Below are positions 3,885 to 29,367 of a DNA stretch of 62,147 nt, piece after piece. Position 1 is the first letter of the stretch. Every line of letters begins with the position of its first letter. A program made the position numbers and the translations under genes. The notes under the pieces were generated by a model. That model was not told the origin of the DNA. It saw only the letters and a program-made list of their open reading frames with translations, and did no database searches. Source of the stretch: Schmidtea nova (lineage: Eukaryota); contig CM097883.1 of the NCBI GenBank assembly GCA_044892505.1, forward strand, positions 205,965,854 to 206,028,000, given 5' to 3'.

Positions 3885-3919
3885 ACACACTTGATAAAGG
3901 CTGTGCCGAAATATTGTGT
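3885..3919 (+). ncRNA. Minimal hammerhead ribozyme motif (U3-A8 variant), right-arm PLE tail
   Basis: acacacttgataaaggctgtgccgaaatattgtgt, ~100 nt after the ORF stop. Confidence 0.7.
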
Positions 3920-3971
3920 TATTGTTTATATAAAAAAAAATTTTGATCTATAGTCATTATGAGAATTATTG

Positions 3972-4030
<59 letters not shown>

Positions 4031-4052
4031 TAATAATAATAATAATAATAAT
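3972..4052. repeat. (AAT)n microsatellite abutting the PLE right tail
   Basis: Directly visible. Confidence 0.95.
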
Positions 4053-4585
4053 ATGACTTTATAAAAATATTCAACACAAAAAAAACAAATTAAAAATATT
4101 GTCGTAGTTTTTATTGATTGCGCAATATTATTTACAATCAAAAATAAGGCCCTAAAGAGGACCATTATTTCATTCTCAATCTGTTTTCGTATGTCTTTTC
4201 GGTTTTCGGTTTTCTGAATCTGTTTTCTGAATCTGTTTTCGGTTTTCTGAATCTGTTTTCCTTTCTGTTTTATTTTCTGTTTATTTTCTGTTTATGTTTC
4301 TAAAATCTAAATATGAAAAAAAACAAAAACTGTTTTTTACAATCATAAATTGTGGCCCTAAAGAGGGCCGATTTTGCATTCTCATATCTTTTTTTCTGAT
4401 TTTCTTGATCCTTCTGAATATCTTCTTATTTTTTTTTTGATTTTCTGTTTTATTTTTTTTGATTTTCGGTTATTTTTTTTTGGTAATCTTTATTTCCGTT
4501 TATTTCTAGCCATCATTGCAAATAATTATGCTCCGGCTCTTCGTAAAAGAAATACGGATCGTCATCTTGTATCTGTTGTTGTAGC

Positions 4586-4616
<31 letters not shown>

Positions 4617-7600
4617 GATTCTGATGCTGAGGTTGCTCCGTATCTAAAATACTGTTACCCCCTCTATAATGGCCATATGCCAGGATTTTATTTTTCCCTA
4701 CCAAATTACGCTTGTCATCTCTACAGCTTAATGCCCTCTTATGATTTTTAACACTAAAAAGTTGATGATTTTTAGATGTTATCCTAAACTGGGGGACCGT
4801 ATAGATCTTATTATTTACATAGCAATCTAGATACGACTGATGAGTTAGTCCAGTATCCTTCATGCATATCCCCTTAGCCTTCATACTCTCCTCATCACCC
4901 ATTAAGCTGTAGCATTTCGGTCTAAGAAACACCCACTCTTTATACAGCATCCCTTTACTCTCGTCTTTGAACTTTCCAATGACAGAGTCAAGGTTTCTAT
5001 TGTATAAAGGATCCATAGGGTCATAATTGGAAGTGTCCAGCAAGCAATCATTAACCATAGCCGGTAAAAGAGTGTCAAGACTACTGTTTTTTACCTCAAG
5101 AAAAAAGGAGTCAGTATCCCCAGCAACGATGTTAATCTTACAGTTGAACTCGTCACGATATTTTTGTAACTCGACATACTGTAGCTGGTACATTCTTAGT
5201 TTGGATAAATCCAGTACAGTTTGACCGATGTAGCTGGGTCTATCCAAACATATTGACTCCTTTCGCAGCAAAACAGAAATCAGGTCATTATCTATTTTAT
5301 TAGTTTTACGAAACGTAGGTTTCGAGCAATAAGTGATTAATTTTTTGGCATTATTACATAGACGCAAATTAATGCGTTTTTTAAAATTTTCAACAGTCTT
5401 GCCGTAAAGACTGTTGTTTAATAATTTATAAAAATCGCGATCTAATTTATTTGTTGACGCTGATCTTAACGTCGTATTTGTGTTTATATAATTTAAAAAA
5501 ATTTTATTTTGGTTAAATTTTATAGCCCTGTGGACTTTTGTTATAATGATGCCTAATTTAACAAATAGTTGCAGAAGCCGCCAATGAAGAACATAGTTCT
5601 TCTTTGGATTATGCGTGAGCATCAGCTTCTCAACCTTGGATCCCGGTGCACACATCTTTTAAGCGGCAACTGGAAGATCATCCAGTTTGTCGTGAATTGA
5701 TGCCGGTATCTCCAAATCCACTTCTATGGTGTAGCCATAATGAAGTACATCTAGATCGACCGATGTGCACTCACAAACGATTTCATTTAATAAGTGGTCA
5801 TCAGTGACCCATTCGAAATTAGAGCAAGGTAAAGGTTGGCTTAAGGCCCATCCATACAAATTATTGATGTCAATGTAAAGCAATGCGGTATCCGGGCTTG
5901 TTTTTACATAATGTTTGTTAATGAAGGTTAGTCCGCCACGGATACCGCCCTCGAAAAAGTTGTACATCTCCATATCGGTGAGGAGCTCAATTGGAGATTC
6001 TAAGGTCATTAATGCGGAACTCCAAGATAAACTTGGAATCCCGAGGAAATTCAGAGGTTCAAGTCTATTATGATTAATAGACTTGAAACGAAATTGCTGG
6101 AAAAAATCAGCAAGTAAAAAAACGTCGAGTTTTAAATAAACCATCATGTAATCAAAAAGTGAATTACATGATGTTTCAACCCATATTCTTTGTGCCATTT
6201 CGTATTCTGCTTGTTTTACATCTTTCCAGATCGGTGGAAGAGATAAGGTTGAATGTAAAACTTCTAAGGAAGTTGCAGCATCATAGGGAAAAATGCCCTT
6301 GGCTGTAATTATAGTGCCTTGAAATTCTGATTCGGTGAGTGGTAAGGAAGTAAGAGTTTTGACAGCATTATTTCAAGACTCGCTGACGAATTGGTATGAG
6401 TCTATGAATTCTACAGTTAAAGAGTCAATCCTAGCAAAAAGACTAAGAAATTTCTCACTGGTTAAGGGAATACAACTTATATTCCATTTTCGGTATTTGG
6501 ATAAACCATATTTTAGAATATGGTGTAGATCATACCCCTTTAAATTATGAAAGATAACAGGAAGGGTATCTCTAATCTGTCTGGATTTATTACATTCTGA
6601 GCAAGTTGCTCCAAGAAAAAGACCGGTGAAACTTGTCATGATCCCTAACAGGTCTACATAAAAGCTTTTTACACAAATAACAAATTGTGCTGTTATTAAA
6701 TTCAATTTGTTGCTCATGACTTATTATCATTTTTTTATTTGAATTTTTAAAATAGTATGGTGTTACTATGTGGCGACTTATAAGTTCTATTTCATTAAGA
6801 AATTCTTCTACACAATTAAGGCCGGCAAAAGATTTATATGTTTTTTGACCAGAAAAGTTGTTAATTAATAACAAACCGGCAGAAATAGGCAAATGCTTTT
6901 GGAAATACCAGGTGTTCGGAGGTAAAATTGCCTCAAAGTCGGCATAAATAACAAAGGGAGGAGTCACTGTTTTGCGCCAATCAGTAAATTCGAGCATTTT
7001 ATTTTTTGGTAATGTGTACAAAGTTGTACCAGTTTGATTTTTATCACAAAGACCCCTATGCCTATTGAAAACTTCATCATTTCTAAACCCATTTAAACAT
7101 CTCGGACACCATTTACTACAAATCCTTACCGGGGTTATCGAGCTATTACGACAATTCAAAAATCGATTTAAATCAAAGATACCTATATAATGATAAGTTT
7201 TTCTGTTCTCAAGCAATAACAGATTTATTGGGGTACCACCTACAACTTTTGACTTGTAAATTAAGTCTATAAAAGGGTGTTTAAGAACAATATCCTCATT
7301 GTCATCAGTAATATCTAATAAGGCATTTTCATCATATGACATAACATTAATGCTATAACCAGGGTTTTGTCGCTCAAATTTACTGATATTTCCAAGTCTC
7401 ATTGGCATATCATTGGGGTCATAATTTAATTGTGAAAGATTGTAAGATGAAGGAATACAACGAGTTTCATTCGTTAAACTATCATATTTAATTATCGAAA
7501 GAAAGCTATATAAAAAACAAAAGTTGTCCTCATTCACGACATTAACTAAGCATTTCTTTTTCCGTAAAGATTTAGGAGTATCGATAGACTGACTTCCGCC

Positions 7601-8205
7601 TAATCTAGTTATTTCAGAGTATCTGGTCAAGACAAAGCTTATGTACTCTACTTTGGAGATAGTCCAGTTACTACCTTATTACCTTATTACTACCGCTATT
7701 ATTTTTTCATTTAAAAGAGCAATACCTTCTTCAATGAAAGTATCACTCCAGACCCTGGCAGAATTTGAGATAACGAACGATTGTAATTCATCGTCTTTCT
7801 CAAATTCCACCTTCAAACAGAATTGGATTTTAACGGTTTTTAATTTGTTGACATAAAAATTTAATTTTTTTAAAAGAATTGTCGGTACTGAGACCGTTTT
7901 CAAATTTAAATTTTCAACGTCCATTTTAATAATTATATGATTATTATTTAGGTCATTTATGATCTCGACGACACCATATCCTATTTGGTTAATATTATTT
8001 AAATTATTATTATTATTTAAATTTTCATCATCACTGATGACTATTAATTCATCATCAGTGAGATCTATTATTTGAATTTTAGTAGGAACTGAATCCGGTA
8101 TTTTAATATGTTTTCTTTTATTATTATTTAAATTATTTGTATTATTTGTATTATTGATATTATTTAAATTATTTGTAAGATTATTATTTGTATTATTTAG
8201 ATTAT

Positions 8206-8399
8206 CATAATTATCTTTTTTCACCTTTGATCTTTTTTTATTATTATTATCAATAATTCTCATAATGACTATAGATCAAATTTTTTTTATAAACAATAAC
8301 ACAATATTATACACACTTGATAAAGGCTGTGCCGAAATATTGTGTTATTGTTTATAAAAAAAATTTGATCTATAGTCATTATGAGAATTATTGATAATA
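8206..8399. mobile_element. 194-bp palindromic mini-PLE (inverted tail + hammerhead + tail) inserted in pPolB
   Basis: 8223..8308 matches the tail at 1..90 and 8311..8399 matches 3885..3975. Flanked by the 14-bp direct repeat attatttagattat (8192-8205, 8400-8413). Confidence 0.85.
8311..8345 (+). ncRNA. Minimal hammerhead ribozyme motif in the mini-PLE
   Basis: Identical to 3885..3919. Confidence 0.68.
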
Positions 8400-8844
8400 A
8401 TTATTTAGATTATTTGTATTATTTAGATTGTTTGTATTATTTGTATTATTTGTATTATTTAGATTATTATTTAGATTATTATTATTTATAGTATTAATTA
8501 TAGGATTAATTTGGTTGTTGTTAATAAAATTAGGAAAAATTTGCTTAAATAAAATTTTCTTGGAAGGCTGAAACTGCGAAAGATGTCTACAGTGCCTATT
8601 AAAGAAATCAAAATATGGGGAAATTTCGATAAGTTTACAGGTGTGGCATAGGAGGTGGGTAACATTATTATATGTCAACGAGTAGTATTTTTCCATAATG
8701 ACATGGCAATCATTATGGAACCTACTGTTGCAAAAATTTTTGTAGGTTGAACCTGAATTTAAATAAATATTTAAATAAATTTTCAATATACATATAACAT
8801 TATAAATACAAAAATTATATCAAAAATCAATATTTCATCATATA

Positions 8845-9162
8845 CAGTAAATTGTTGCATATATAATTCTATTTCATAAATGTTTATTATCAAAAAATGA
8901 ATAAAGTAAATTGTTTCATATATATAATTCTATTTCATAAATGTTTATTATCAAAAAAAATGAATAAAGTAAATTGTTTCATATATATAATTCTATTTCA
9001 TAAATGTTTATTATCAATAAAATGGATAAAGTAAATTGGTTCATATATATAATTCTATTTCATAAATGTTTTTTATCAATAAAATGAATAAAGTAAATTG
9101 TTTCATATATATAATTCTATTTCATAAATGTTTATTATCAATAAAATGAATAAAGTAAATTG

Positions 9163-9222
<60 letters not shown>

Positions 9223-9525
9223 CTATTTCATAAATGTTTATTATCAATAAAATGGATAAAGAAAATTGGTTCATATATATAATTCTATTTCATAAATGTT
9301 TTTTATCAATAAAATGAATAAAGTAAATTGTTTCATATATATAATTCTATTTCATAAATGTTTATTATCAATAAATGGATAAAGTAAATTGTTTCATATA
9401 TATATATATATATAATTCTATTTCATAAATGTTTTTTATCAATAAAATGAATAAAGTAAATTGGTTCATATATATAATTCTATTTCATAAATGTTTTTTA
9501 TCAATAAAATGAATAAAGTAAATTG

Positions 9526-9565
<40 letters not shown>

Positions 9566-9740
9566 CTATTTCATAAATGTTTATTATCAATAAAATGGAT
9601 AAAGTAAATTGTTTCATATATATAATTCTATTACATAAATGTTTTTTATCAAAAAAAAAAACAAAATGAATATTTCATAATATAATTCTATTACATAAAT
9701 GTTTTTTATCACAAAAAAGTAAAATGAATATTTCATAATA
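8845..9740. repeat. ~62-bp AT-rich minisatellite, ~12 copies plus 2 degenerate, with variable internal (TA)n
   Basis: Unit aaagtaaattgtttcatatatataattctatttcataaatgtttattatcaataaaatgaat. Confidence 0.93.
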
Positions 9741-9895
9741 TAAATACTTTTAATATTATACTTTTAAATCATTTTGAAATGGTTTGAAAAACAATTACAA
9801 AATGATTTAAAAATAATATATTAAAAGTATTATTTAAATTAAAAACTCATGTTAAAAAAAAATAAATTCAATAATAAATTTTAACAAATTCTTAC

Positions 9896-10423
9896 ATTTG
9901 TTCTTCCCATAAATTGGGGCATCCAGATTAGCGACAACATTCGGGACACCAACATTCGGGACGTCATTCGGGACCTCATCGTCCATATCCACATTTCTCA
10001 TAATATTCATATTATCTGAAAAATTTATAATTAAATAATATTAATAAAATAAATAAATCAAATTACAATTAAATCGTCCCATTGACGAAAATACCCCCAT
10101 CCTTGGTGATGCTTCGGCATTGTTAATGTTGTTGTTGTTGTTATTGTTGTTGTTGCTATTATTATCTAAAGTAAAGTAATAATAATAATAATAATAATAA
10201 ATATTACCTAAAAATCGGATTCCATTGTGTTCTCCAACTCGTATTCTTGGAGCAACATTGAAAGATGTCGACTGGTCATCCTGTCGCATCATAACTGTTG
10301 CGAGATTTTGCGCAATATTCATTTCTGAAAGGAAATAATAATAAAATTCAAAATAAAAATAATAAATTTACCATTTACACCTCCTGCGAAATTTCTTTTC
10401 TTTGATATTCTAATATTATTCAT
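9896..10423 (-). CDS. Spliced multi-exon ORF of the Polinton (exons 10423-10372, 10324-10208, 10165-10067, 10015-9896); possibly the 5' exons of pPolB
   Basis: Three GT-AG phase-1 introns of 47, 42 and 51 bp give a continuous frame MNNIRISKKRNFAGGVN-EMNIAQ...DAPIYGKNK, followed by another GTAAGA donor at 9895. Confidence 0.6.
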
Positions 10424-10503
10424 CTTTGATTGAGTGATAATTGATAATTGATTTGAAAATTGATTTGAAAATTTATAAGTAAAAAGTGACGAAATAATGC
10501 AAG

Positions 10504-10711
10504 TATATACTATATAAAGATGAATTTTATTAACCGACCAATCAGAATCGAGATAGGATAGGCATATACATGCACACATACTGCACACTCAATATACTTT
10601 GTTTATGTGTTTGACGTCACGATACTTGCTTTGTATCGTGACAAAGACATGATATGACATGTTTTATCATGTGCTTATCACGCACTGATCACGCACTGGT
10701 CATGTCTTTGT
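10504..10711 (-). promoter_or_regulatory. Putative Pol II promoter: TATA-like (10504-10517), CCAAT box CGATTCTGATTGGT (10537-10550), CRE TGACGTCA (10612-10619) with nested inverted repeats
   Basis: Motifs lie upstream of the ATG at 10423; the same CCAAT block recurs at 15303 and 15358. Confidence 0.5.
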
Positions 10712-10803
10712 GATTAAAATAATAATATTCAATATTAATAATAAAAATAATAATATTTTATAAAAATAATAATAAAAAAAAATAATAAAATCACATAATA
10801 CAT

Positions 10804-11205
10804 TTATTGTTTTAAATAATCTACAACAGCAGACAAGCACCCTTTATAGGCACACATACAATGGTCTTTATAGGGACATGAAATGTTTTCAGGAACATAT
10901 TCAACTTCTTTATAATTATATTTAATTAATCTTAATTTCGGGAAATACTTCTTCAAAACATGTAACTTTTCATTATCGGTAACATAGAAAATAGCTCCTT
11001 TATCTGTAATATCATCCATTATACATTTTGGGCAAAAATAATCTTGTCCTTCAAACGATTCGATACGATCAGGCCAGAAAGATAAATCACTGTATATATA
11101 ATACTGGGGTGTGAAAATATTATTGACATTCATAATACATAATTCCTTAATTGTTGTACCACCCATTTCATTATAACCATAAAAATCGATAAAATAACAA
11201 GACAT
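10804..11205 (-). CDS. Polinton accessory protein, DEDD/DnaQ-like exonuclease-fold N terminus with Cys/His-rich C terminus (likely catalytically degenerate)
   Basis: FIDFYGY...IKELCI resembles the DxxG..IKEL pattern; CPxxxH..CAxxxC tail; a homolog occurs at 28887..29087. Confidence 0.55.
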   Translation of the reverse strand: MSCYFIDFYGYNEMGGTTIKELCIMNVNNIFTPQYYIYSDLSFWPDRIESFEGQDYFCPKCIMDDITDKGAIFYVTDNEKLHVLKKYFPKLRLIKYNYKEVEYVPENISCPYKDHCMCAYKGCLSAVVDYLKQ

Positions 11206-11237
11206 TTTTTCAAATAAAATTTATTAAAATAAATTGT

Positions 11238-11616
11238 TTATAACATTGATTTCAACCATGCAAGGCAATGTTCACCACAAGTGATTGTTAAGGGATGCTG
11301 ATACCGAATTCTATTATACACAATAGGTTTACCAATAGTTTGAAGTTTTCGAACAAGTAAATTCGGATAATAATATCCAAAGGGATCAAATACATGTATT
11401 CGATCTGGTTTCACATAAACTGCAATCCAATGTTCACCGCCCAACGTAGATGTCTGAGTATTTACAATGATGGCTTGATTCATTTTCAAATAAGGTATTT
11501 TATCTAGCGGAAATACTCCAATAAATTGATTTCCCAATAGTTTTTTACCTTGATGTAATACCTGAATAGAACTAATTAAAAATAAATAATTAATCAATTA
11601 AAAAATCTTACTCCAT
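11238..11616 (-). CDS. Adenain-like cysteine protease (5-nt first exon 11616-11612, 40-bp intron 11611-11572)
   Basis: IVNT...GEHW (His), FDPFG (Asp), YQH...TCGEHC (Gln, Cys). Splicing yields MDSIQVLHQG. Confidence 0.9.
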
Positions 11617-11719
11617 GATAATAATAAGTTATAATAACTATGGTCATTTATACTATTTGAGCAGAGCTTAAACTAATAATGTTTAAGCTTTGCTTAAACC
11701 AACAATGTTTGAGCAGAGC

Positions 11720-12230
11720 TCAAACCAATATTGTTCGATTGGCCGTAATTTGTACTTCATTTTCAAAAACTCCATATATAATTACATGAACAGGTTCATC
11801 AATGGGTTTTGAAAACTTTATATCGAGTCGTAAATTTCCGTTTTGAGGGATTTGGCCTTGATTCAAATCAAAATCGGGAGCGAGCACAAATGTAAAGAAT
11901 GGATATTTAGTTTTAAATTCATCCAGACTTATACCACAATTCAAGTTTTTATCCAAATATCCTAGATTTCTGACAACACTTTGCATATATGTGGCACTAA
12001 AATTATCATTTTCAAAATCTTGAGTATAAGTTTCTCGAAAATCAGTATTTTTCGATAACGTTAATGAAGTCACATTGAAATGTTTGAATGTAGATGCAGA
12101 TTCAGCATATGATCCATTATATTGATTTTCAGTTTGAAAAGCCACAAGAATGAAATTAGGCATTCTTCTATCTCCAAATATTTGCTCCTTGTAAAATGAC
12201 GATGCCCCTTTCCGATTTACTGTAAAATGG
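11720..12230 (-). pseudogene. Major capsid protein (double jelly-roll), C-terminal remnant
   Basis: MPNFILVAF..NGSY...FKHF...GISLDEF...LAPD...GNLRLDIKF...YGVFENEVQIT..R matches the Polinton MCP C-terminal pattern; the N-terminal ~60% is missing. Confidence 0.8.
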
Positions 12231-12386
12231 AAATGGATTATACACAAATGTAAAGTCTAAGAGAGAGACTTCCCAAATCCCGTCCAAATACATTGTATTT
12301 TGGAGATTGACCATGAAATTACTTGCTGTATTATCTGGATGTATATCTGGACAACTGTTGCTAGGTAGAATCATATAAAAATTCAT
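12225..12386 (-). pseudogene. Minor capsid (penton-like) protein, N-terminal remnant
   Basis: MNFYMILPSNS..HPDNTASNF...L...LDGIWEVSL is the typical Polinton minor capsid start. Its ATG overlaps the integrase stop (ATGA). Confidence 0.75.
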
Positions 12387-13429
12387 TTTACTAGGTTTTT
12401 TGATGATATCCATGATGGTTCTTTATATCCATGCCACTTGACATAGTATTGTTTATCCTTACCCACCATTTTAGATTTCAGGATTTTTTGAATTCTAAAT
12501 ATTGTCGGTGGAGGAATAACTTGTAATTCTTGTTCGTAGAATTTCCCGCTGATTATATTGTTATCAGAGTCACAAATAGTATACATGACAGGATTCTGCA
12601 CTGTGTTGACTTTCGATATTTGATATACCTCATCACTCCAATTATTTTCAAAATTTTTAATAAATGGCGATGCACTAATTTTGCTTATTCGAACATGATC
12701 ACCAATTTTATATTTTGGTTTCTTTATTTTCACTTCACTCAAAGTATTTTCAGTATCAACTACTTCGGCCGGTTTCCTACCATTTATACCCCGATGAGCA
12801 CTATGATTATAACTATGAATCAATTGAGGTAAAACATTAATCCAGGTTTTATTGCCTTTAAAAACAAAGTATTTTTTCAATCGATCACGCAAAGTTCGAT
12901 TAAATCTCTCGACATGAGCGGCTTTGAATTGCGAGAATACTGAATAATGATTTATTCCCTTGATAACTTCCTTGACTTTACTGTTGTAAAATTCCTTTCC
13001 TAAAAAATATTAAATATGTATAAATTAAAATTAAAATTTACCCAAATCGGTTTGTAAATTAGTTGGCCGATCCTTTTTCATCATTGTTTTGATAGCAATT
13101 GCCATGTCATTAGCTGATTTTGATTTTACTCCAATTGCTCGAGCAAATCTACTGTAAACATCAATACATGTTAAAATATACTTATACCCCTTGTTAATTT
13201 TGGAATACGGAATCATTTCCATCAAGTCCATTTGCCACAAATCATTGATTCTATATGTTTTATATGCTCGAGTTGGAAACCGTTTCAACATCGGTTTGTT
13301 TAGACTGTATGCAAGTTGCCCCGATAACCAACTTTGTGTCTGTTGTTTCGACTTCTGTGCTTTTTTCCTTAGCTTTTTGACTCCACCGAAACCGGCGTCG
13401 TCTTTTGGGTTCGTCAAGATCTTCTGCAT
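12383..13429 (-). CDS. Retroviral-like DDE integrase with C-terminal chromodomain, 334 aa after removing a 42-bp intron (13041-13000); intact
   Basis: WQMDL (D), QTDLG^KEF (D; the intron splits the Gly codon), VERFNRT (E); chromodomain IQKILK..YYVKWHGY..PSW. Exons of 388+617 nt are in frame. Confidence 0.92.
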
Positions 13430-13481
13430 TACAACAAGAAGATTTAAAGTTTAAATTTAAATTAGGTAATGATTGACCCAT
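13260..13481 (-). CDS. Small ORF overlapping the integrase 5' end in another frame; MG start, CC, basic patch
   Basis: MGQSLPNL...SSCC...KRRRRFRW; its ATG is 3 nt after the stop of the upstream gene. Confidence 0.35.
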   Translation of the reverse strand: MGQSLPNLNLNFKSSCCNAEDLDEPKRRRRFRWSQKAKEKSTEVETTDTKLVIGATCIQSKQTDVETVSNSSI

Positions 13482-13484
13482 TGT

Positions 13485-14070
13485 TTATGACCTTTGTCCC
13501 AATAAACCAGCACCTCCCAATAATGATAAAGCTAGTGGTAATAATGCGGTAATAAATCCTCCTTGTTGTTTATATATTATTTTGCGCATAAGTTTTCGAT
13601 TTTTTGTTTTTACTAGCGACAACAATGGTTTCTTATGCTTGTTCAAAACACGTCGATTAGATGGACTGAGATGCATTTTACCTCTCACTACTTTAATTAA
13701 AATAGCGAGTAAATCATCGATAACGTAATTAAATAAATCATCGATAACGTAATTAATCGATAACGTAACTAGGAAACGATTGAAGAATAGCCATTCTTCT
13801 AGCGGATGGGGCTTTAAGCAATGCATTAAAAAACGGAAAACTCCGATGATGTATTTGTTTAGCATTTGATTTCAAATTAATTGGAATTTGATTTTGTTTG
13901 GGAAAATTATCCATAATTAGTTTTTTCGATGGCGTATAACTTGTTTTTGAAACTGATTTTGAAACGGATTTCTTTGTCGATTTCTTTCTTCGACCTGCTT
14001 TCTTACCTATTTTCATTGATTTTCGAGCTTTTATCAATCGTTCAAACTTTACTCGAGATTTCATTAACAT
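13485..14070 (-). pseudogene. Basic Polinton core/cement-like protein with protease-site-like QQGG^F C terminus; frameshifted by a 40-bp tandem duplication (13729-13768)
   Basis: Removing the duplicated atcgataacgtaa block joins ...FPSYVID to DLLAILIK...KQQGGFITALLPLALSLLGG. Lys/Arg-rich. Confidence 0.65.
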
Positions 14071-14090
14071 TATTATTACTGTAAATCAAT

Positions 14091-14693
14091 TTAACTTTGT
14101 TTATAAACCATATCAGTTCTAACTCTTAAATCATCACTGCATTGTTGAGTAAAGTCCAGGAAAATATATCCATGAGGAGATTTTGTAGCATCTTGAAAGG
14201 CCTCCATTAAAAAGTTACGGTTAGAAGGATAAGCTTGTCTTGCCAGAAAATCAATAACTGTTGCATCTCTAGGATTTTTAAACACAACAAGATATTGAAC
14301 ATATAAATTACGAGTTCGATGACTACCGCCCTGATGAAATAAATTCTGAGTTATAAAAATAACAGTAACACCTTTATGTCTACTGATTTTCGTGAATAAG
14401 TTATTGAAATCCTTTTCTTTATTTGCTTCTTGATACAAGTCGTCAATTATAATCACATCACCTTGTTTTAATCTAGATGACCAGTTTTTATCGAAACCTT
14501 TTATGATTGTCATTTTTATTTTACAAAACTGATATTGAGTCATTCCACTTTCGTCGTCAGCACCCCTATGCCAATAAATATTATTAAATTTTGACTTGAA
14601 TAATTTCGATTGCAATAATTTACAAACAAATAAAGTTTTTTCACTCCCGCTCGGACTAACAATTTGAAACACTGCATCATTTCTTAATTCCAT
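14091..14693 (-). CDS. Polinton A32/FtsK-HerA packaging ATPase with damaged Walker A
   Basis: SPSGSEKT (from GPSGSGKT), IIIDDL, FTKISRH..VIFITQNLF, KNPRD, HGYIFLD. Confidence 0.9.
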   Translation of the reverse strand: MELRNDAVFQIVSPSGSEKTLFVCKLLQSKLFKSKFNNIYWHRGADDESGMTQYQFCKIKMTIIKGFDKNWSSRLKQGDVIIIDDLYQEANKEKDFNNLFTKISRHKGVTVIFITQNLFHQGGSHRTRNLYVQYLVVFKNPRDATVIDFLARQAYPSNRNFLMEAFQDATKSPHGYIFLDFTQQCSDDLRVRTDMVYKQS

Positions 14694-14787
14694 ATTTAAA
14701 AATTATATTTTCTTAATATTATTGTTTATATTTGTTTTAAATACCGGTTCTCAAAGTAATTGTTTCATTTAAAAATATTTTCAGTAA

Positions 14788-15275
14788 TGATTAGAAACAT
14801 TATTTACAAGGGTAAGACAGATGAATCACACATGAAATTTCCAAATGGAAAACCACAGCAAATTGTAGATCGAAGTGGGAAATACCCAAAAATATACTTT
14901 AAAACAGGAAGATATAGAATAATGGGATGCAGGAATTTATTAGTGAAGAACAAGTTGAGTTTTACGATTTAAAAATTCAATCGATAACTGTAACTGCGGA
15001 TTTAGGATTTATTTGTAATTTGAATGAATTATCTAAATTGATACCGTGTGTTAACGAGCCAGAATTATTTCCAGCTTTGAGATATACCAAATATAATCCC
15101 ATGTGTGTAAATATATTTGTAAATATATTTGTGTGTAAATATATTTGGGAAATTAGTCATATTAGGATTAAAAAACAAAGATTATTCAACTATAGTTGAT
15201 GATATTAATAACGATATAAAATCAATTATAGAAGATAAAGCCTTTGTTGATTTCATACTAACATGTGACTCATGA
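14788..15275 (+). pseudogene. TATA-binding-protein (TBP)-like protein, two half-repeats, frameshifted (~14930 and ~15120-15147)
   Basis: Repeat 1 ends IYFKTGRYRIMGC. Repeat 2 is IQSITVTADLGFICNLNEL...NEPELFPALRY..P.CVNIF..GKLVILGLK, comparable to TBP IQNMV..D..I.LE.L...YEPELFPGL.Y....LIF.SGK.V.TGAK. Confidence 0.75.
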
Positions 15276-15302
15276 CTGCAATATCGATGCAGTAGAAATG
15301 CA

Positions 15303-15418
15303 CGATTCTGATTGGTTCTGTGTGTATTTCGAGAATAAAGACATGTTGTGCATGCTTGATTCTGATTGGTTCATTATGTATCGTTTTCTAAATCATGTGT
15401 GTTTCTTTCGTATATAAA
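15303..15418 (+). promoter_or_regulatory. CCAAT-CCAAT-TATA promoter
   Basis: GATTCTGATTGGT at 15304 and 15358, TATATAAA at 15411, ATG at 15454. Confidence 0.55.
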
Positions 15419-15453
15419 CTATGAACAAACTGACATAGTTTATATCTACAATT

Positions 15454-16049
15454 ATGTCGCAAAATACAAAGAATTTAAAAAATGGTAATAATAAAATTAA
15501 TATATTTTCAAATTTAATATATTTTATTTTTTTTTAGAAAAACGCATGTCCGTCATCTACACCAAACTGGCTGAGATGTTCCCCAACCTGATGCAGACGC
15601 TGACCTATACAGCACCAGAGCTGTTCCCGTACAAAATTCACGTTTTGACGGGAATAGATGTTAATAAAATATTAAAGTAGCACCTCGAAAATCTCAACAA
15701 TGATTTGCCTTTTATGGCCGAACATATATTATGCGCCTATCAATGCGGGCACTGTGTGGATAGGATCCATAAATTACAAGTGTGGGTTCTCCGAAATACC
15801 CTGAATCAATTCGAAACCAAGGAGATGAAGGAAATCATCGAGGAGGAGATGAAACAAGAAAGATGGTTGAACTCAACCCCCGAACCGATTGATGATTCAA
15901 TTGAGATTGAAGCACCAGCGATAGATGGACCATTGGAATCGCCACAATCACCTGATTGTGATGAATGTCACCGAAAGGTTGACGATTGTGATGATGATGA
16001 TGATAATGATGGTTGCCAATCTCTTGGTGGTGAACCATCAGATATGTAA
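15454..16049 (+). pseudogene. Two-exon Polinton ORF (53-bp intron 15485-15537), Cys-rich middle and acidic tail; one in-frame TAG at 15678
   Basis: Spliced frame MSQNTKNLKN-EKRMSVIY...ILK*HLEN...HILCAYQCGHC...DCDECH..DDDD. Confidence 0.6.
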
Positions 16050-16429
16050 ATTTTATTATTATATTTTTTGTTCAATAAAAGTTTTTGAATTTATTTTTTA
16101 GTTTTGTTTTCATTATTTGTAATAGTTTTTTTTTATGTAAATGTTTTAATTATTTTATTAAACTTTTTATTAAATAAGAAAGTGTTTTGGTTTTTAAAAA
16201 AAGTATTTTAGTTATGAAAGTTTTGATTAAATGAGAATAAGTAAGAATGTGTTTTTTTATTTTTGATAAAAATAATAATTATGAAATAAATAATTACAAA
16301 ACTTAAGAACATTAGTAACAGAAAATTCCGAGCAGAACCCTGGTAGCAGAACCTATTCTGTGATGGTTTTTATCTGCAAAAGCTCATTACTTGAACATAT
16401 CTCACACTTCATAATTTCATCATCATAAC

Positions 16430-17850
16430 ACTAAAGACGTAGAGACAACGCTTAAAGCGCTGCATGATTTAGATGATGGGAAGAAGATGTCTGATGTCGT
16501 ATACTAGTTTGGAGTCCCTCTGAGCACCCTTTCTACATGGAAAAAGAATAGATCCAGCTTGGAAGTTTCTTCCATTTCAATGAACCCAGATCGTAAAAGA
16601 AACCGAACTCAAAGTTAGAAGACGTAGAGGAGGCCTTGCTGCAATGGATTACTAGAGTTCGTGGCCAAAATGTCCCTATCTCTGGTCCTCTTATGAAAAA
16701 AAGGCGGAGCAGCTCGCTGGTATCATGGGGTTTCCGAATTTTCAGTGTAGTAATGGATAGCTAGATTGTTTCAAAGTGAGACATGAAATAACATTTAGAA
16801 ATGTTTGTAGAGAAGGCAATTCTGTGAAAGAGGAGGACATCTTATCTTGGCAAAATTCTCTTCTCCCGGAATTGCTTAACAGATACAAAGCCGAGGATAT
16901 ATTTAATGCTGACGAGGATAGTTTGTTTTTTGAACTCTTACCCGACAAAACAATGAGTTTCAAGGGCGAACCATGCTCAGAAGGTAAGAAATGAAAGCAA
17001 CGTGTCACAATCATGGTTGCTGCAACATGACTGGCTCTGAGAAACTTCCTCTTCTTGTAATCGGATGCTCAGCACAACCACGATGCTTTAAGAATATCAA
17101 GTCGCTGCCCGTTGAATATGTTTCCAATAAAAAAGCATGGATGACTGCCACATTATTCGAGGAATGGCTCAAGAAATATGACAGAAAATTTGCAAAACAA
17201 AAGAGAAACGTGGCCTTTATTGTAAATAATTGTGCAGCTCATCCTGATGTACAGGGACTTATGGTAAGCATCATTTTATAAATTCTTACATTTTATACAT
17301 TCTTACGTATAGGCTATAAAACTAATTTTCCTTCCTCCCAATACGACGAGAAAAACGCAGCGAATGGAGCAAGGCGTTATTCAAAACTTGAAAATGCACT
17401 ACCGCTCTCGAGCACTCTCTCTCTTCTTCTCACAGATCTTGAAGCTGGCAAAGAATTTCGAGTGAACCTTTTGGAAGCTTTGCACACAACGAGATATGCT
17501 TAGAATTCTGTAAGGCAGATTACCATTGAAAATTGCTTTAGGCACTGTGAATTCAAAATTACAGATGACATGCCCTCAATCACTGAAGAGAAAATTGAAG
17601 AACCGCTCAGGAAGAGCAGTACCAGGTAGACTGAATAAATAATAAAAATTCTATATTCTTAATGAGTACAGGAACATATGGGACCGACTTCAACAACTGG
17701 GGCTCGTCAAAAGCAATGACACATTGGCCAGTTACATCACTGTCGATAATGATGTAGCCACCTCTGGCATATTAACGGAAGAAGTAGCAGCAGAGGTCGT
17801 ACACAAGAAGAAAGGAGCTAATGTCATCAATGAGAGTGATTGTGAAGATA
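16430..17850 (+). mobile_element. pogo/Tigger (CENP-B-type, TIGD4/6-like) transposase, decayed, with introns
   Basis: GVPLSTLSTWKKN, LEDVEEALLQW, NVPISGPL, IFNADE, CNMTGSEKLPLLVIG, KKAWMT, VNNCAAH, FLPPNTT; GTAAG...TAG intron near 17263-17312. Confidence 0.88.
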
Positions 17851-18819: not shown

Positions 18820-19773
18820 TGTGAATGTCATATTTTATGGTTTAATTCATCTTACGATTATGGTTTTTCTCGTATTTTGTTGTAAGCGCCGTCATTGTTA
18901 TGGACGGCGCCTTTGTGGTCACCGGGGCCCCCCCCTTTTTCTTGTGAATGATAATATTTATTTTTATTATTATTATTATTATTATTTAAATTTGACTTTC
19001 AAATTTGGCTTGCTATAGCAAAAGATATAGTAAGCCAAATTGACAATTAAATTAACAATTAAATTAAAATCGATCAAAAAAAAATAAAGCTAATAGTTTA
19101 AAAACTGCCCAAATAATAAGAAAGCTCGAGTTGCAAATTCACCGGTTAAACAAACAAAAAAGAAAATTGTCAGATTCAAAACAATTGTTTTTTCAATTCT
19201 CCCTTTGCCAAATCTTAACAATTATCTTAAACCAAACAATTTAATACAAGAAAACGACAACAACAATCTTAAACCCATCTTGAAGAAGAACTATTGAAAA
19301 CGAAGTGCAGAAACTTCCCTTTGCCAAATCTTAACAATTATCTTAAACCCAACAATTTAATACAAGAAAACGACAACAACAATCTTAAACTCATCTTAAA
19401 GAAGCACTATTGAAAACGAGCTGCAGGAACTTCCTATTGCCAGATTTTAACAATTATCTTAAATCAAACCATTTAATACAAGTAACTTTCGTGGTTCTAA
19501 AGTTTTTCTTTTAGATACATTTTCAGTTAAATATAACTTGCATCATAGTTATTGTGTTAAGTTACTTATTTATTTGTTAGTGTTAATATTGTATCTAAAC
19601 AGTTCTTATTACGCACGCACTCACACCAAAAGGACATACGCATACACCCCGAGTGTCCTAACACAAATCGGTGACTCTCTCGGGCTCGTCAATAATTTCC
19701 TCTGGTACACAAAACTACATAATAAATAATATTTCCTTAACAAACATCGACAATCTAATTTATTTCCTTAACA
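18820..19773 (+). repeat. 5' LTR
   Basis: Direct repeat of 24525..25473; TG...CA; internal ~120-bp tandem repeats. Confidence 0.93.
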
Positions 19774-19776
19774 AAC

Positions 19777-19789
19777 TGGTGTCAGAAGT
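19777..19789 (+). other. Primer-binding site, tRNA-Leu-like
   Basis: TGGTGTCAGAAGT just after the 5' LTR. Confidence 0.75.
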
Positions 19790-19964
19790 CAACACAACAC
19801 ACACACTCGCCGTTTTTTTCAAGCGTTAACGCCTTTAGCATACCTATTATAGAGGTATAAGGATTAACGTCACTTTTAGCCGAACACAGTAGGCTATATT
19901 CTTCAGTCAAGCTCATTTTTTTCACATAAAAAAACGCCATAACAAACAACAACAATACAATTAA

Positions 19965-21157
19965 ATGGCAATGAACCCAATAAACCCAAACACTTCACAA
20001 ACACCCATGGACAACGAAAATGCACAATCCCAACACCAAAAATACAATTAATATTACAACCCCGAAAACACACACACCATAAACTTTGTAATTAACACAA
20101 AACCCAACTTACTAAACTACTTCACTGATGAAATTGGCACCCCACAAAAATGGCTAGAATTTGCCAAATTAACACTAACCCTTTCAGGTATAAAATCCAC
20201 AAAAACCTTATGCTCCAATATTATAGCCGCACTCCCCAGCAACAAACTAAATGAAAAATCCGATCAGATCGAAGACATTTTTAAGGATGACGACCCCTTT
20301 AACAAACTATGCAACATCCTGACGAACAAAAACAAAATAAACAGACGGCAAAAGCTTGAATCTTGCCTCAACAACACTCAATTAGGTGACAATAAACCCA
20401 CTGATTTTCTCAGGCAATTAAAACAAAAACTAGAATATTTGCAACCAAATATCACAAATTCGGGTTCAAATGAACTAGTGAAAGAATTTTTCATGCGACA
20501 ATGCCACCAGAAATCAGGAGGATTTCGGCAGCCAGCAACAACGCTGACGGTGAAACACTTGTCGACATAGCTGATAAAATCCACGAGGAAATTTATCCGA
20601 CTATATGCAGCACCCAAAACCACAACAAAAACAAAACCAACTACAATAACCCTCCATACAACAAAAACAACGAAACAAACGACAACATGAACAAACTATT
20701 AAACACCCTAATCGGCAAATTCGACGAAATAATCGTCGAAAACAAACAAATTAAAACAGAACTAGCCGAAATAAAAGAACGCTGTAATATACAGAATTTT
20801 ATATCAACACAATCATACGATAGTTACAACAGATACAACTACAACAGAGACCTACCATCAGACGGTCAAAACAGACAATGCTACAATCAACCCCCAGAAT
20901 GCAACAGACAAAACTACAGCCGCAATCAATCACCAAACAACAATTACAGAAACCGGTTGAACTCCCCAAATCGAAGCAACAATTACCGAAACAGAAGCCC
21001 AGAAAGAGATCCAAGAAATAATTATATAAACAAAAACCTGTACTATTTCCACAACAAATTCGGTGAAAAAGCATTTAAATGCACACAACCCTGCGAATCA
21101 ATAAAACAGAGCAGGGAAACCAATAAGGTCACCAATGATAGCACCCACATCAGGTGA
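19965..21157 (+). pseudogene. gag: gag (with a premature stop)
   Basis: LGDNKPTDFLRQL, FFMRQMPPEIR, degenerate (C)YFH.KFG..A.KC..PC knuckle. Confidence 0.8.
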
Positions 21158-24100
21158 CAAAAACAACACATTTTGGGTGCACAGCAATAGCATAGACTTT
21201 TTAATAGACACCGGCTCGGTGATTTCATTACTGCCCCATTTTATGTATAAAAGTGCCAACAAAACAGAAAAACCATTAACAGCAGCTAACGGCACAAACA
21301 TAAAAACTTTCGAGCAACAAACAATAAACTTAACCATAAATAAAAAGAACTACAACTGGACATTCACTATAGCTGAGGTCCAACAAGCGATAATAGGAGC
21401 AGACTTCCTAACAAATTACAACCTCTTAGTTGATTTTAAAAACAAGCAAATACTAGAAAATACTAACGCTACAACTCGACAACGCAACACGAGCAGCGGA
21501 CAAAGACCAAAGATAGACATCGGCGTCGTTACAACAAACATAAAAAACAAACCAAACCGGAATAAAAACATACCAGAAATCGACAAAATTCTGGAACGAT
21601 TCAAGGATTTAACGGAACCCGTCCAATTCAACGACAATTCTGAAAAAACAACCGAACACGCCATAATCACAAACGGAAATCCAGTGCACTCAAAAGTAAG
21701 ACCACTGGACCCCAAAAATATAGAAATCACAAAAAACATTTTCAGCGAACTGTTAGAAAATAACATTGTAAAACATTCCAACTCTGAATGGTCTTCAGCA
21801 TTGATGCTTAAACAAAAAGCAAATGGTGAATGGAGAGCCTGCGGCGATTACAGACTATTAAACAAAATTACAGAACCAGACAGCTACCCATTACCTATAA
21901 TTAAAGACATCATAAACAGATTAATCGGGGCAAAATAATTCTCAAAAATAGGTCTACAAAAAGCATACCACCAGACCCCAATTAGAAAAGAGGACGTCAA
22001 GAAGACAGCAATAACAACCCCAATCGGAATGTTCGAATACAACCGAATGCCTTTCGGTTTACGAAATGCGGCAGCAACATTCCAACGATTCATGGACCAA
22101 ACGATGAAAAACAACAAAAACACAATAGCTTACCTGGATGACATCCTAATATCAAGCCCAGACAAAACAACACATCTAAAATATGTAGAAACGGCGTTCG
22201 AAACACTGAACAAAGCAAAACTTAAAATAAACATACAAAAATGCGAATTCATGAGAAATGAAATAAATTTTCTGGAACACACACTAAACGACAAAGGAAC
22301 ACAGCTAATCGAAAACAAAATTAACAATATAAAAAACTACAAACTACCAACAACCACAAGAGAGTTGAGGAGATTTCTAGGAATGGTAAACTTCTACCAT
22401 TCGTACATCCCAAACTGCAGTAAATTACTAGCACCATTAAATGACATTACCACAACAAAGCGAAATGTCACAATAAACTGGACTCATCAAACAACCGAAG
22501 CATTCGAAAAAGCCAAAGAAAGTCTTTCAACGGCAACACTACTCGGATATCCTGATCCAGAAATAGAATACCAATTAACTACAGACTGCTCAGGTTTTGA
22601 AATGGGGGCAACAATTTTCCAGGAAAACAAATTCGGAAAACAACCACTAGGTTTCTTCTCTAAAAAGCTAAAGTCACACCAAACAAGATATTCGACTTTT
22701 GACAGAGAACTACTAGCAATACATGATGCAATCAACACTTTCAACATCTACTCGAAGGGCGAACTTTCAAAATATTCACCGACCACAAATCGCTAACAAA
22801 CGCAATTGAAATGAAAAACCCTTCGCCAAGACAGATCAGATAAATCAACTTCATTTCACAATTCAATTGTACAATAAATTATCTATCGGGAAAATCAAAC
22901 ATAGCAGCAGACGCCTTATCCAGAACCGAAAGTGACATAAATTCCTTATAATTCGGAGAAATGATTGATTTGGATCAAATCAAACCCAAATAAAACGAAA
23001 CAATAAGGAAACTGCCTACTAAACACAGTCTGAAACTCCAGGAACTTAACGGAGTATGGTACGATGTATCCAACGAAAGCAACAGACGAATTCTACTACC
23101 CAAAGAATTCCGCAAAAAATGCATCGAAAAGATCCACTGAATTAATCATCCGGGAAACAAAACAACTTTCGAATTTATTCACAACAATTATATATGGCCC
23201 GACATGAGGAAAGAGATAAAAAACTTTGTCAAAAGCTGCCATAATTGCCAAATAAGCAAACCGACAAAGAAAATTAAAACAGAAAAAGTAAACTTCCCAA
23301 GTAGTCAACCCTTCGAGGTGATTCACATAGACATAGTAGGACCGTTACCACCGAACAACGGGTACAACTACTTACTAACAATCATCGACAGAAAGACAAA
23401 CTGGTTTGAAATCGTCCCAATAAAAGAAATATCCGCTCAAAATATATGTAACAACATCGAACTAAATTGGATGGCTCGCTACGGACAACCCAAAATACTA
23501 ATAACAGATCAAGGGAGGCAATTTGAATCAGAACTATTCAGCGCCCTATGTAAAAAATATAAAATAAAACGGAATCGAACAACCGCTTACAACCCTCAAG
23601 CGAATGGAAAAGTCGAAAGACTGCATAGAACGCTTAAACAAAGCGAATGACAGAAATTGGTTGTCTGAACTACCGACAATATTGCTGGGACTAAGGAACA
23701 CACCAAACTCAATAGACATCGAAAGTCCAGCATACAAAGTGTTTGGCAAAGAATCAAACCTCCCAACAATTAAAAACAATACAACAGAAAACGCAAAAAC
23801 CAACAAACAACCAACCAACACAAACAACGAAAGAGTAGAAAAGAAATTAAAAGGAATCCCAAAAAAGAGAGCGAACTCTGAAATGGACGGAAAAGTAGTA
23901 CTAACGACAGACTACGTATTAATCAAAAAGCCCTTCACCAAAGGTTTCGAACCAAAATACGAAGGCCCATTCAAACTGATGGAAATTAACAAAAATGTGG
24001 CAACAATAATAAAAGACAACATCAAAACAAGAATAAATCTTAGAAGAATTAAACCATACCACAACAATCAAAACACTTCAAACAACCCCACAAAAGAAAA

Positions 24101-24248
24101 AGCCCCGACACAAACAAAAACACAAACAAAAACTCAAACAAAACATAAACACATCACATTCAACCCCAACAACTCGATAAAACTTTTCGACAAGGACACA
24201 ATAATCACACCCCTTTACAAAAAACGCTATAGCGAATGCCTTAAATAA
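21135..24248 (+). pseudogene. pol: pol (PR-RT-RNase H-IN), several stops and frameshifts
   Basis: FLIDTGS, CGDYRLLN, MPFGLRNA, YLDDIL, TTDCS, YSTFDRELLA, HIDIVGP, TDQGRQF, NGKVER, YEGPF. Confidence 0.93.
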
Positions 24249-24524
24249 AAATATACAAGCAAAACACAGGCACAACATAGTCATTTGTACAGATTTTTAT
24301 TTCTTTTGTAGATATGTAATTCATCGTGTTAAATTGTAATCAAACAAACAAAACATAACAAAAACAAAACAAAACAAAACAAAACAAACAAAACAAACAA
24401 AAAAAAAGATTTTATGTTACTGTTAGTGTGAAAAGGTAAATTGTAAGTAATTTGTAAAAGTAGTTCAAATATAAATGTTAATTTTTATTCTTTTGTTAAC
24501 CTCCGGTTTTAAAGGGGGAAGTTG

Positions 24525-25469
24525 TGTGAATGTCATATTTTATGGTTTAATTCATCTTACGATTATGGTTTTTCTCGTATGTTGTTGTAAGCGCCGTCAT
24601 TGTTATCGACGGCGCCTTTGCGGTCACCGGGTGCCCCCCTTTTTCTTGTGAATGATAATATTTATTTTTATTTTTATTATTATTATTTAAATTTGATTTT
24701 CAAATTTGGCTTGCTATAGCAAAAGATATAGTAAGCCAAATTGACAATTAAATTAACAATTAAATTAAAATCGATCAAAAAAAATAAAGCTAATAGTTTA
24801 AAAACTGCCCAAATAATAAGAAAGCTCGAATTGCAAATTCACCGGTTAAACAAACAAAAAAGAAAATTGTCAGATTCAAAACAATTGTTTTTTCAATTCT
24901 CCCTTTGCCAAATCTTAACAATTATCTTAAACCAAACAATTTAATACAAGAAAACGACAACAACAATCTTAAACCCTTCTTGAAGAAGAACTATTGAAAA
25001 CGAAGTGCAGAAACTTCCCTTTGCCAAATCTTAACAATTATCTTAAACCCAACAATTTAATACAAGAAAATGACAACAACAATCTTAAACTCATCTTAAA
25101 GAAGCACAATTGAAAACGAGCTGCAGGAACTTACTATTGCCAGATTTTAACAATTATCTTAAATCAAACAATTTAATACAAGTAACTTTTGTGGTTCTAA
25201 AGTTTTTCTTTTAGATACATTTTCAGTTAAATATAACTTGCATCATAGTTATTGTGTTAAGTTACTTATTTATTTGTTAGTGTTAATATTGTATCTAAAC
25301 AGTTCTTATTACGCACGCACTCACACCAAAAGGACATACGCATACACCCCGAGTGTCCTAACACAAATCGGTGACTCTCTCGGGCTCGTCAATAATTTCC
25401 TCTGGTACACAAAACTACATAATAAATAATATTTCCTTAACAAACATCAACAATCTAATTTATTTCCTT

Positions 25470-25553: not shown

Positions 25554-26464
25554 GTTTGTGGCATCAAATAACACATTTAATGAAAACTAAAAAAACCAAT
25601 AAATAAAAAGAAAATAAATTTAAGTCTATGCAATTCAGCAACAAAATTCATTACTCATACCTTTAAACCTACTCTTCGCAAAACCTATGAAATTGATTAC
25701 GACCTTATTTCAGTATTATTAAATAAAGATTCTTTATGTTTAGATGGATCCAGTTATATTTATAAAACCGAATTGGATTTATCTAAACTTGGTATGTACT
25801 AGCTGTAGTATGAAAATTTACAACAATATTGTAACGATTTCAATTGTGAAATTAACATCAGAACTCAGAGGTGTCAAAATTATGATCCACAAAGCCGTAC
25901 CAGAAGGAAAAAATATGAAATAATAATTCTTATTATAAGTTTAAAACAATTATTACAATTACATTTTCAATTTAGGCCAAAAGCTTACTGTATGTCAATT
26001 TTTGTATGTAATTTTTGCTTGATATAATGTACCGCTTCTCATTTTTCAAATCTTCAAAGTTTGGTATTAGACTTTGGCTAGATTTAATTTTTTATATAGA
26101 ACCTAAATGTTCTTCAGTCAATCTGGTTCGGTGCGCTGTTCTAGTCATTTTCATTTGTGAAAAAAGCTGTTCACATATATATGTGCTACCAAACATGGAT
26201 AATATGCGTATAACTGTGAGGTGTTTTCCGCTGAGAACTAAATATTTCAATGATTTATTAAAATAATTTCAAATGATAAATAATTTAAATTTAATAAGTT
26301 TTAAAATAATTGTTATAACTAATGTGTATTTATGTTTTTTATAATTTTTATAATTTGTAATTTTTATTTTTAAAGTTTGTAATTTTAAGATATAAAATAA
26401 ATAAGTAAATTTTAATAAATTATAATTTTATAAATAACTTTATACATTTTAAAATTTATAAATT

Positions 26465-29353: not shown

Positions 29354-29367
29354 GAAAATTTGATATA

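Follow-up and report, generated by a model that had tools for sequence, protein, structure and literature searches.

A Polinton-borne TBP-fold protein and a TATAAAC box before virion genes in Schmidtea nova: a candidate early-to-late switch

The closest described counterparts of the locus considered here are the TBP-like proteins of Nucleocytoviricota, many of which also encode an RNA polymerase, and the vTBPs of beta- and gammaherpesviruses (KSHV ORF24, EBV BcRF1 and CMV UL87). Herpesviruses are nuclear and use the host's RNA polymerase II (hereafter Pol II), and the accessible text of PMC12529657 describes KSHV ORF24 as engaging TATTWAA late promoters with a DNA face that is polar. This protein is large, comprises several domains and acts in a complex of six factors; it makes direct contact with Pol II and is without the glutamates that contact TFIIB. 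In TBPs more widely, a basic cluster on helix 2 of the N-terminal lobe binds TFIIA, TAF1, Brf1/2 and Mot1, and two glutamates of the C-terminal lobe bind TFIIB; most viral TBPs lose these glutamates and bring their own TFIIB (PMC7221094, accessible portion). The same portion reports that most Nucleocytoviricota with TBP-like proteins encode their own TFIIB and that the first stirrup glutamate is present in just ~40% of these proteins. TBP touches the 3' half of the box through its N-proximal domain, and its specificity is altered by changes at I194, V203 and L205 (PMC1636458, accessible portion).

For Polintons, a 'TBP' label appears once: Starrett et al. 2021 (PMC8502044) use it in the legend to Fig. 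5, for a map that shows MELD viruses and elements related to them, and the accessible text of that paper holds no description of a TBP family or of its structure, promoter or function. The accessible text of Jeong et al. (PMC10748475) makes no mention of TATA, promoter or transcription factor, and Polintons are unmentioned in the accessible text and four searchable supplements of Ravarani et al. Within the literature covered, outside which lie subscription journals and Repbase reports, this legend label was the only published trace of the TBP-like family or its box, and nothing was found in print on how Polinton genes are switched on.

The Polinton system resembles that of the herpesviruses in its presumed nuclear use of host Pol II, in the polar DNA face of its TBP-like protein, and in having a one-base TATA variant before structural genes with host-type promoters on putative early genes (PMC12529657, accessible text). 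It differs in that its box departs from TATA at position 7, the herpesvirus late motif departing at position 4, and in that its protein, unlike ORF24, has 155 aa and retains the glutamates; this length is too short to hold an extra domain such as the herpesvirus Pol II-binding domain. The structural match to the herpesvirus proteins is weak (BcRF1, E 0.026), and by analogy they are a functional parallel and not members of the same family. With the TBPs of Nucleocytoviricota (matches in BFVD, E 1e-6 to 1e-3) the protein shares a viral TBP fold and the loss of the N-lobe regulatory signature (PMC7221094, accessible portion), whereas its first stirrup glutamate is widely kept (E91 in 110 of 123 family members, with D in 6 more; the second, E93, in 121 of 123). 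In the element itself, the core genes of Polintons, Mavericks and adintoviruses are all present, as are their terminal repeats and the target duplication of 6 bp.

The TBP-like gene and its Polinton in Schmidtea nova

The window, a stretch of 62,147 nucleotides of S. nova contig CM097883.1, contains a Polinton copy (Table 1) that, compared with complete natural copies, has lost its terminal repeats and ~1.95 kb of its capsid genes and has broken frames. Its TBP-like gene begins with an ATG at 14787, one base upstream of the start at 14788 given in the earlier note, and its stop codon ends at 15275. The four TBP motifs quoted in that note are all in the sequence, distributed over three frames, and the two frameshifts it described were located near 14932 and at ~15115-15150, the second being a local tandem duplication, and the duplicated stretch was present in 0 of 209 other loci. 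Unbroken natural copies encode a 155-aa ORF, as had been estimated, and this protein has no host-type N-terminal extension, also as claimed. In the window the gene does sit head-to-head with the ATPase (ATG at 14693, minus strand), across a spacer of 93 nt where ~95 bp had been given. This copy of the gene, and the Polinton that carries it, are dead.

Table 1. Features of the Polinton copy in window coordinates.
Position	Strand	Feature	Basis
3957..16188	.	Decayed Polinton copy, part alignable to complete natural copy; no terminal inverted repeats left	Comparison with natural copy
4513..8819	-	Polinton-copy part	
11236..11242	-	TATAAAC box before conserved 133-aa gene (10804-11205)	Sequence
11238..11597	-	Adenovirus-type C5 protease	Pfam
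11720..12413	-	Minor and major capsid gene remnants, fused across ~1.95-kb deletion at 12216-12219	
12383..13429	-	RVE integrase, chromodomain at C-terminus; interrupted at 13041-13000 by 42-nt GT-AG intron-like stretch	Pfam
12451..12457	-	GATAAAC box before minor capsid gene, within integrase coding sequence	
13483..13489	-	CATAAAC box before small MG-start ORF (13260-13481) and integrase	
13485..14070	-	Basic protein, hydrophobic C-terminal peptide; split here, ~170-aa single ORF where unbroken	
14091..14693	-	A32-like packaging ATPase, P-loop altered in window copy	Pfam
14099..14105	-	TATAAAC box before basic protein gene, within ATPase 3' end	Sequence
14694..14786	.	Spacer, 93 nt, two back-to-back candidate core promoters	Sequence; spacing also 93 nt in most of 60 sampled copies
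14724..14730	-	TATAAAC box, candidate late promoter, ~36 nt before ATPase start	Sequence
14736..14769	+	TTTAAATA and, 31 nt apart from it, initiator-like TCATT; together putative early, host-type promoter of TBP-like gene	Sequence
14787..15275	+	TBP-like gene, broken in window copy; 155 aa in unbroken natural copies	Sequence, frames, Pfam, model
15548..16049	+	Acidic accessory gene, downstream of TBP-like gene, without family	

Pfam matches around the TBP-like gene comprised pPolB, the RVE integrase with chromodomain, the A32 ATPase and the C5 protease; the double jelly-roll major capsid match came from a fragment in the window copy and fell below cut-off (E 0.0015), and the full Polinton ORF set was mapped in natural copies. 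The capsid deletion takes out the core gene and two boxes. The intron-like stretch of the integrase (minus strand) lies inside the catalytic core and is the same in the metagenome locus L092, and several accessory genes of this Polinton family seemingly begin after splice acceptors; both features would fit nuclear Pol II transcription.

Several further genes of the element were recorded. The small MG-start ORF (minus strand) is conserved, overlaps the integrase start and stands directly behind a box in 5/5 windows, and its MG start suggests possible myristoylation. The 133-aa gene (minus strand) is cysteine-rich, occurs in 20 loci and had no Pfam match; lineages differ in what precedes it, some having a box and L191 a host-type promoter. 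In the window and in L031, L033 and L037, the accessory genes that follow the TBP-like gene have in common a YxAPE(L/M) motif and long acidic tails, and no family or structure match was obtained for them; a reading of the YxAPE motif as a kinase mimic found no PDB support and was rejected. An AT-rich tandem array of ~62-bp units lies upstream of the polymerase gene (8843-9780), and similar arrays occupy the same place in other copies.

The flanks of the copy contain other mobile elements. At the left break lies a perfect inverted repeat of 1,941 nt, its arms 93 nt apart, that holds a 581-aa reverse transcriptase ORF (13-3987), Penelope-like by its C-terminal region, and at the right break the remnant of a DDE (Tigger/pogo-like) transposase (16533-17500). 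Farther on are an LTR retrotransposon whose long terminal repeats hardly differ (19077-25430) and fragments of a second, more diverged Polinton (25584-26027 and 28689-29359), comprising a polymerase-like piece and a region of the 133-aa gene and protease with ~67-72% DNA identity.

The family is abundant in this genome. A 20-base word from the TBP-like gene had exact matches at 3,337 places, which, as exact matches only, is a lower bound on the number of gene copies, and a control word had 0. Seven copies read end to end were each ~18 kb long; terminal repeats of 1.24-1.39 kb, starting AGTAGG and accompanied by 6-bp target duplications, were read directly in five of the seven, and the other two also have terminal repeats, with the top alignment stopping short of the element ends. 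Among 60 copies taken in position order from the first 100 listed places, 57 had the TBP-like gene at full length, and in 44 of these 57 it was intact. An ATPase match accompanied it in 59 of the 60, always on the opposite strand and mostly 93 nt away, and the TBP-like gene adjoined the ATPase in 10/10 loci chosen through the ATPase.

Comparison of the sampled copies revealed purifying selection on the TBP-like gene. Variants common to at least three copies gave w=0.13 (N=26, S=54), the same measure being 0.03-0.28 for core genes (integrase 0.09, major capsid 0.07, minor capsid 0.28), and for private variants w was 0.68, the behaviour expected of copies that decay once inserted. Pairwise dN/dS to four distant copies was 0.19-0.23, and more distant subfamilies in the same genome have a protein identity of 64-68% or less. 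These results support the TBP-like gene as a stable, selected part of the Polinton.

Fold and residue pattern of the protein

The unbroken ORF matched the Pfam TBP family (PF00352; E 4.7e-14, 52.4 bits against a cut-off of 22.9), the match being confined to residues 62-126, the C-terminal lobe. An AlphaFold2 model of the 155-aa protein built from 44 relatives (pLDDT 92) could be aligned along both lobes with TBPs of known structure (Foldseek E 5e-9; VIA Z 12.1, rmsd 2.6, 140 aligned), its residues 1-143 corresponding to yeast TBP 66-240, and the two-lobed saddle with antiparallel sheet bears out the TBP fold proposed from the sequence. The proposed two-repeat pattern stands in that both lobes match TBPs, but the repeats are unequal: the first consists of strands (2-10, 25-28, 35-38, 42-48) with no helix, and the second is complete.

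Like cellular and archaeal TBPs, the protein has a two-lobe saddle, a complete C-terminal lobe, the stirrup YEPELFP with both glutamates (yeast E186 and E188; numbering anchored on PDB ranges and then checked), and equivalents of F116, F190, F207, P191 and N69, the last in 101/107 family members. Unlike them, it is ~30 residues shorter, has no N-terminal extension, belongs to a separate clade, and in the model is without N-lobe helices 1 and 2. Its putative DNA face also differs: V71 is replaced by N (80/108 members, with V or I in longer members), V122 by R (R44, 116/118), T124 by M (M46, 120/121), N159 by S/T (121/122), V161 by T/S (120/122), I194 by R (88/123) and L205 by N (N109, 122/122), and C107 pairs with yeast V203 by strand register, where gap placement is ambiguous. 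The column of yeast F99 is an invariant proline, and the other three of the four intercalating phenylalanines are retained (F38 117/117, F95 122/123, F111 122/122, these counts and those above being over ~120 members). The protein matches neither the canonical N69/N159 pair nor the hydrophobic DNA face.

The segment of helix 2, 31 residues long in 6/6 cellular TBPs, has 16 residues here and at most 24 in 80/121 members, and contains 2 K/R against 6-8 in cellular TBPs. As far as the model goes, the N-lobe helices that elsewhere bind TFIIA, TAF1, Mot1 and Brf are missing, and the alignment indicates that the C-terminal stirrup glutamates that bind TFIIB in other TBPs are retained. Without one of the phenylalanines and the two N-lobe helices, the protein might bend DNA weakly or not at all. 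Longer members of the family retain the R/M/N face, which suggests, on an unrooted tree, that the change of the DNA face probably preceded the loss of the helices.

Distribution of the family and of the ATAAAC box

The search for relatives returned 45 proteins at E 1.7e-15 or better, ranked above ordinary TBPs, and 60 representatives (50% identity) with E below 1e-30. Among 60 metagenome loci with TBP-like relatives, many of them short, a core Polinton gene was present in 24, and a core gene or one of two recurring neighbours in 44. Fifteen of these loci had both the TBP-like and the ATPase gene: in 12 the two lie on the same strand with the TBP-like gene upstream, in 2 they diverge and in 1 the TBP-like gene stands at the end of the block. 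The linkage to the ATPase seen in the earlier note holds in this genome; the head-to-head placement is lineage-specific and fails as a general rule. Scans of IMG/VR with TBP-like, major capsid and ATPase alignments gave no relatives, and a search of the ESM Atlas with the TBP-like protein gave just TBP clusters, with too few taxon records to indicate host range; a cluster look-up of the family returned automatic TBP names only.

The host genome has four or five TBP-family loci, of which one is canonical and two are divergent. Quick trees of 75 rows (a subset of 145 aligned, leaving out fragments and about half of the unnamed rows, and with no named archaeal or giant-virus TBP) and of 31 rows placed the TBP-like family across a 99-support branch from host and other cellular TBPs. 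A constraint uniting the genome's two Polinton proteins with the four host paralogues was rejected (p-AU 4e-73). On sequence evidence, the family is a widespread Polinton-borne TBP lineage, separate from host TBPs.

A frequent neighbour of the TBP-like gene, in 20 metagenome loci and absent from the window copy, encodes an OB domain (L092:3719-4132, plus strand). Its model is nearest to the single-stranded DNA-binding proteins (SSBs) T7 gp2.5, Enc34 and ASFV CP312R, at a modest level (Z 7.5, rmsd 2.6, 98 aligned), it has a host-type TATA in this genome's Polinton family, and the ESM Atlas returned nothing for it.

Upstream regions were compared as de-duplicated windows of 130 nt from the 60 metagenome loci and two copies from this genome; these windows come from related elements and are not independent. 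Visual reading of these regions first suggested an ATAAAC motif, and in the seven gene classes named by function it occurred on the sense strand in 51/57 windows, compared with a mean of 6.5 and a maximum of 14 in shuffles. By class the counts were ATPase 12/12, basic protein 8/9, integrase 7/9 (one of the windows without it being an internal fragment after an intron), minor capsid 7/8, core 6/6, major capsid 8/8 and protease 3/5, this genome's family being among the 2/5 without a box. The full heptamer TATAAAC was present in 40/57 windows against 1.8 expected; the base before the hexamer was T in 51 cases, C in 10, G in 5 and A in 3, and the base after it was A in 56/68. The box lies at -31 to -36 in 11/12 ATPase genes, and in capsid, core and protease genes at 19-121 nt from the first ATG, with no fixed distance. 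In some related elements it also precedes an LRR gene or a RING-finger gene (L056, L052, L059, L066, L069; L070:1710-2171).

Other genes have a different promoter pattern. ATAAAC preceded TBP-like genes in 4/41 windows, polymerase genes in 0/4, c12 genes in 2/4 and all other genes in 8/82, against 7.0 expected. A TATA followed at 20-26 nt by an initiator-like TCAY was found in 23/82 other-gene windows (1.3 expected) and in 14/41 windows of TBP-like genes (0.6 expected). In this genome's family, TTTAAATA and TCATT are both conserved among divergent copies and form a candidate early promoter of the TBP-like gene. Two promoter classes follow gene type, with a box before virion and packaging genes and none before the polymerase, the predicted ssDNA-binding protein and the TBP-like gene.

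The ATAAAC signal is positional. Over the whole window the hexamer is not enriched (98 against 90 expected), and inside coding sequence Ile-Asn is spelt ATAAAC at 30/41 occurrences within the last 130 nt of block genes, compared with 23/225 elsewhere. Promoter-position sites are retained in 93-100% of the 60 copies (58/60 for the ATPase box), against a median of 74% for any hexamer, which is weak support because two antisense sites in coding sequence are equally conserved. The late promoter that the earlier note had proposed for an ATPase-integrase-capsid-protease block survives in part: a candidate TATAAAC box precedes the gene of the ATPase, that of the basic protein and the integrase, capsid and core genes, but as a separate signal before most block genes and not as a single promoter in the 93-nt spacer.

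For a held-out test, an ATPase scan supplied four further Polinton-like contigs (L191-L194), filed under bacterial metagenome-assembled genomes and almost certainly mis-binned eukaryotic-virus DNA. L191 encodes a member of the TBP-like family and has the box before 7/7 block genes and one gene of no known kind, and before 0/3 of the TBP-like, orf159 and polymerase genes. L192, a distant Polinton, encodes a TBP of 185 aa in which both lobes are complete and the DNA face is canonical, and the box precedes 1/7 of its block genes, which show TATAAAAG or TATAAGA-type words instead; in the related L193, which ends before any TBP gene, the count is 0/5. The resulting 1/12 is a thin negative control, consisting of two related fragments of which the L193 portion is without a TBP gene. 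L194, a 3-kb fragment with a broken ATPase near this lineage, has no ATAAAC upstream and counts against the pairing of box and TBP.

The L192 TBP gene (11565-12122, minus strand) lies outside the mini-TBP family, and Polintons may have gained a TBP more than once. It is flanked by genes (10818-11576 and 12171-12715, plus strand) with N-termini that look PC4-like by eye; neither had a Pfam PC4 match.

A candidate early-to-late switch and its alternatives

The TBP-like gene is a real, selected and widespread Polinton gene with a matching candidate promoter. The reading we consider likely is that its product acts as a one-gene early-to-late switch on TATAAAC late genes, by way of host TFIIB and Pol II. 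The gene would be expressed early from a host-type promoter through host TFIID, as the TATA-initiator pattern before it suggests. The mini-TBP would then bind the TATAAAC box, since remodelling has affected the lobe responsible for reading the box in its 3' half (V71 to N, V122 to R, T124 to M, F99 to P) and it is in this half, with C at position 7, that the box departs from the host consensus. It would recruit host TFIIB and Pol II to packaging, integrase and capsid genes, TFIIB use being suggested by the retention of both stirrup glutamates together with the lack of a TFIIB found in the element: a profile of 10 animal TFIIBs run over 5,161 six-frame segments, which a very divergent TFIIB could escape, gave nothing below E 0.5, the acidic downstream family compared with TFIIB at a probability of 0.2, and the 18-kb element yielded no TFIIB and no RNA polymerase. 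With N-lobe helix 2 gone, the protein may escape control by TFIIA, TAF1, Mot1 and Brf. Genes with the box would be switched on late, a timing suggested by gene class only.

The specificity of this protein is probably relative, and host TBP would not be blind to the box, because TATAAACG gave 27% activity in plant protoplasts (PMC10005294, accessible portion); a structure of wild-type TBP on the C(-25) variant exists (PDB 1qn3). The same activity favours the strongest alternative, in which host TBP or a paralogue reads TATAAAC as a weak TATA and the viral protein is a decoy or repressor that ties up TFIIB and dampens host or early transcription. The TFIIB stirrup is the best-conserved part of the viral protein and divergent TBP-family loci are present in this genome, as such a role would allow. 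We nevertheless regard it as unlikely: the DNA-face residues are fixed at new polar identities over ~120 proteins with no decay, the box is kept across elements from many environments and is missing where the element's TBP has a canonical face, and ATAAAA, ATAAAG and ATAAAT, towards which a box read by the host should drift, are not enriched in the 57 block-gene windows.

Slightly less probable still is that the protein does read TATAAAC, merely to amplify the element's own transcription, for instance for transposition in germ or stem cells, with no order of early and late. That the integrase is among the genes with a box and that the family has spread through thousands of insertions would suit an amplifier; the promoter classes, however, follow the usual viral split that sets virion and packaging genes apart, and in 37/41 windows the TBP-like gene lacks the box that positive feedback would require.

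An origin of ATAAAC(A) unrelated to the TBP-like protein, as a Forkhead-type host site or a variant poly(A) signal of the upstream gene, is very improbable. ATAAACA is compatible with the Forkhead core, TATAAA, CATAAA and GATAAA are known poly(A) signal variants, and many boxes lie close to upstream stop codons. Against this, in the 57 block-gene windows GTAAACA occurs once (1.3 expected), ATAAAC in reverse orientation twice and AATAAA 14 times (17.6 expected); the box is present before the ATPase even where no gene reads into it (this genome's family, L046 and L083), and is missing at the ends of polymerase (0/6) and c12 (0/6) genes. The remaining alternative, a one-off host TBP pseudogene captured by the element, had only the frameshifted window copy in its favour and is refuted by the intact copies and purifying selection, by relatives in Polinton loci across metagenomes and by the rejection of a host-paralogue clade.

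With the switch as the preferred reading, a broader proposition is one towards which we lean only a little: that a large clade of animal Polintons has a one-gene orthogonal system, in which a re-engineered mini-TBP reads a private TATAAAC, borrows host TFIIB and Pol II and, its docking helix lost, eludes TFIID, TFIIA and Mot1, giving a staged early-late programme shaped by co-evolution of protein and promoter. If true, this would be the smallest viral TBP system among those known to us, and a natural altered-specificity TBP that tests which TBP surfaces are dispensable and how TATA specificity is rewired. It would lend itself to a simple assay with one 155-aa protein and one 7-bp box, in which the viral protein would discriminate among TATAAACA, TATAAAAG and CATAAACA by the C at position 7.

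It has long been an open question whether Polintons are genuine viruses that pass through an infection cycle. A dedicated factor paired with its own box ahead of virion genes would, if the reading is true, be direct evidence of a staged programme in these elements. Given its thousands of copies in a single genome, the protein might also act on host promoters that happen to carry TATAAAC.
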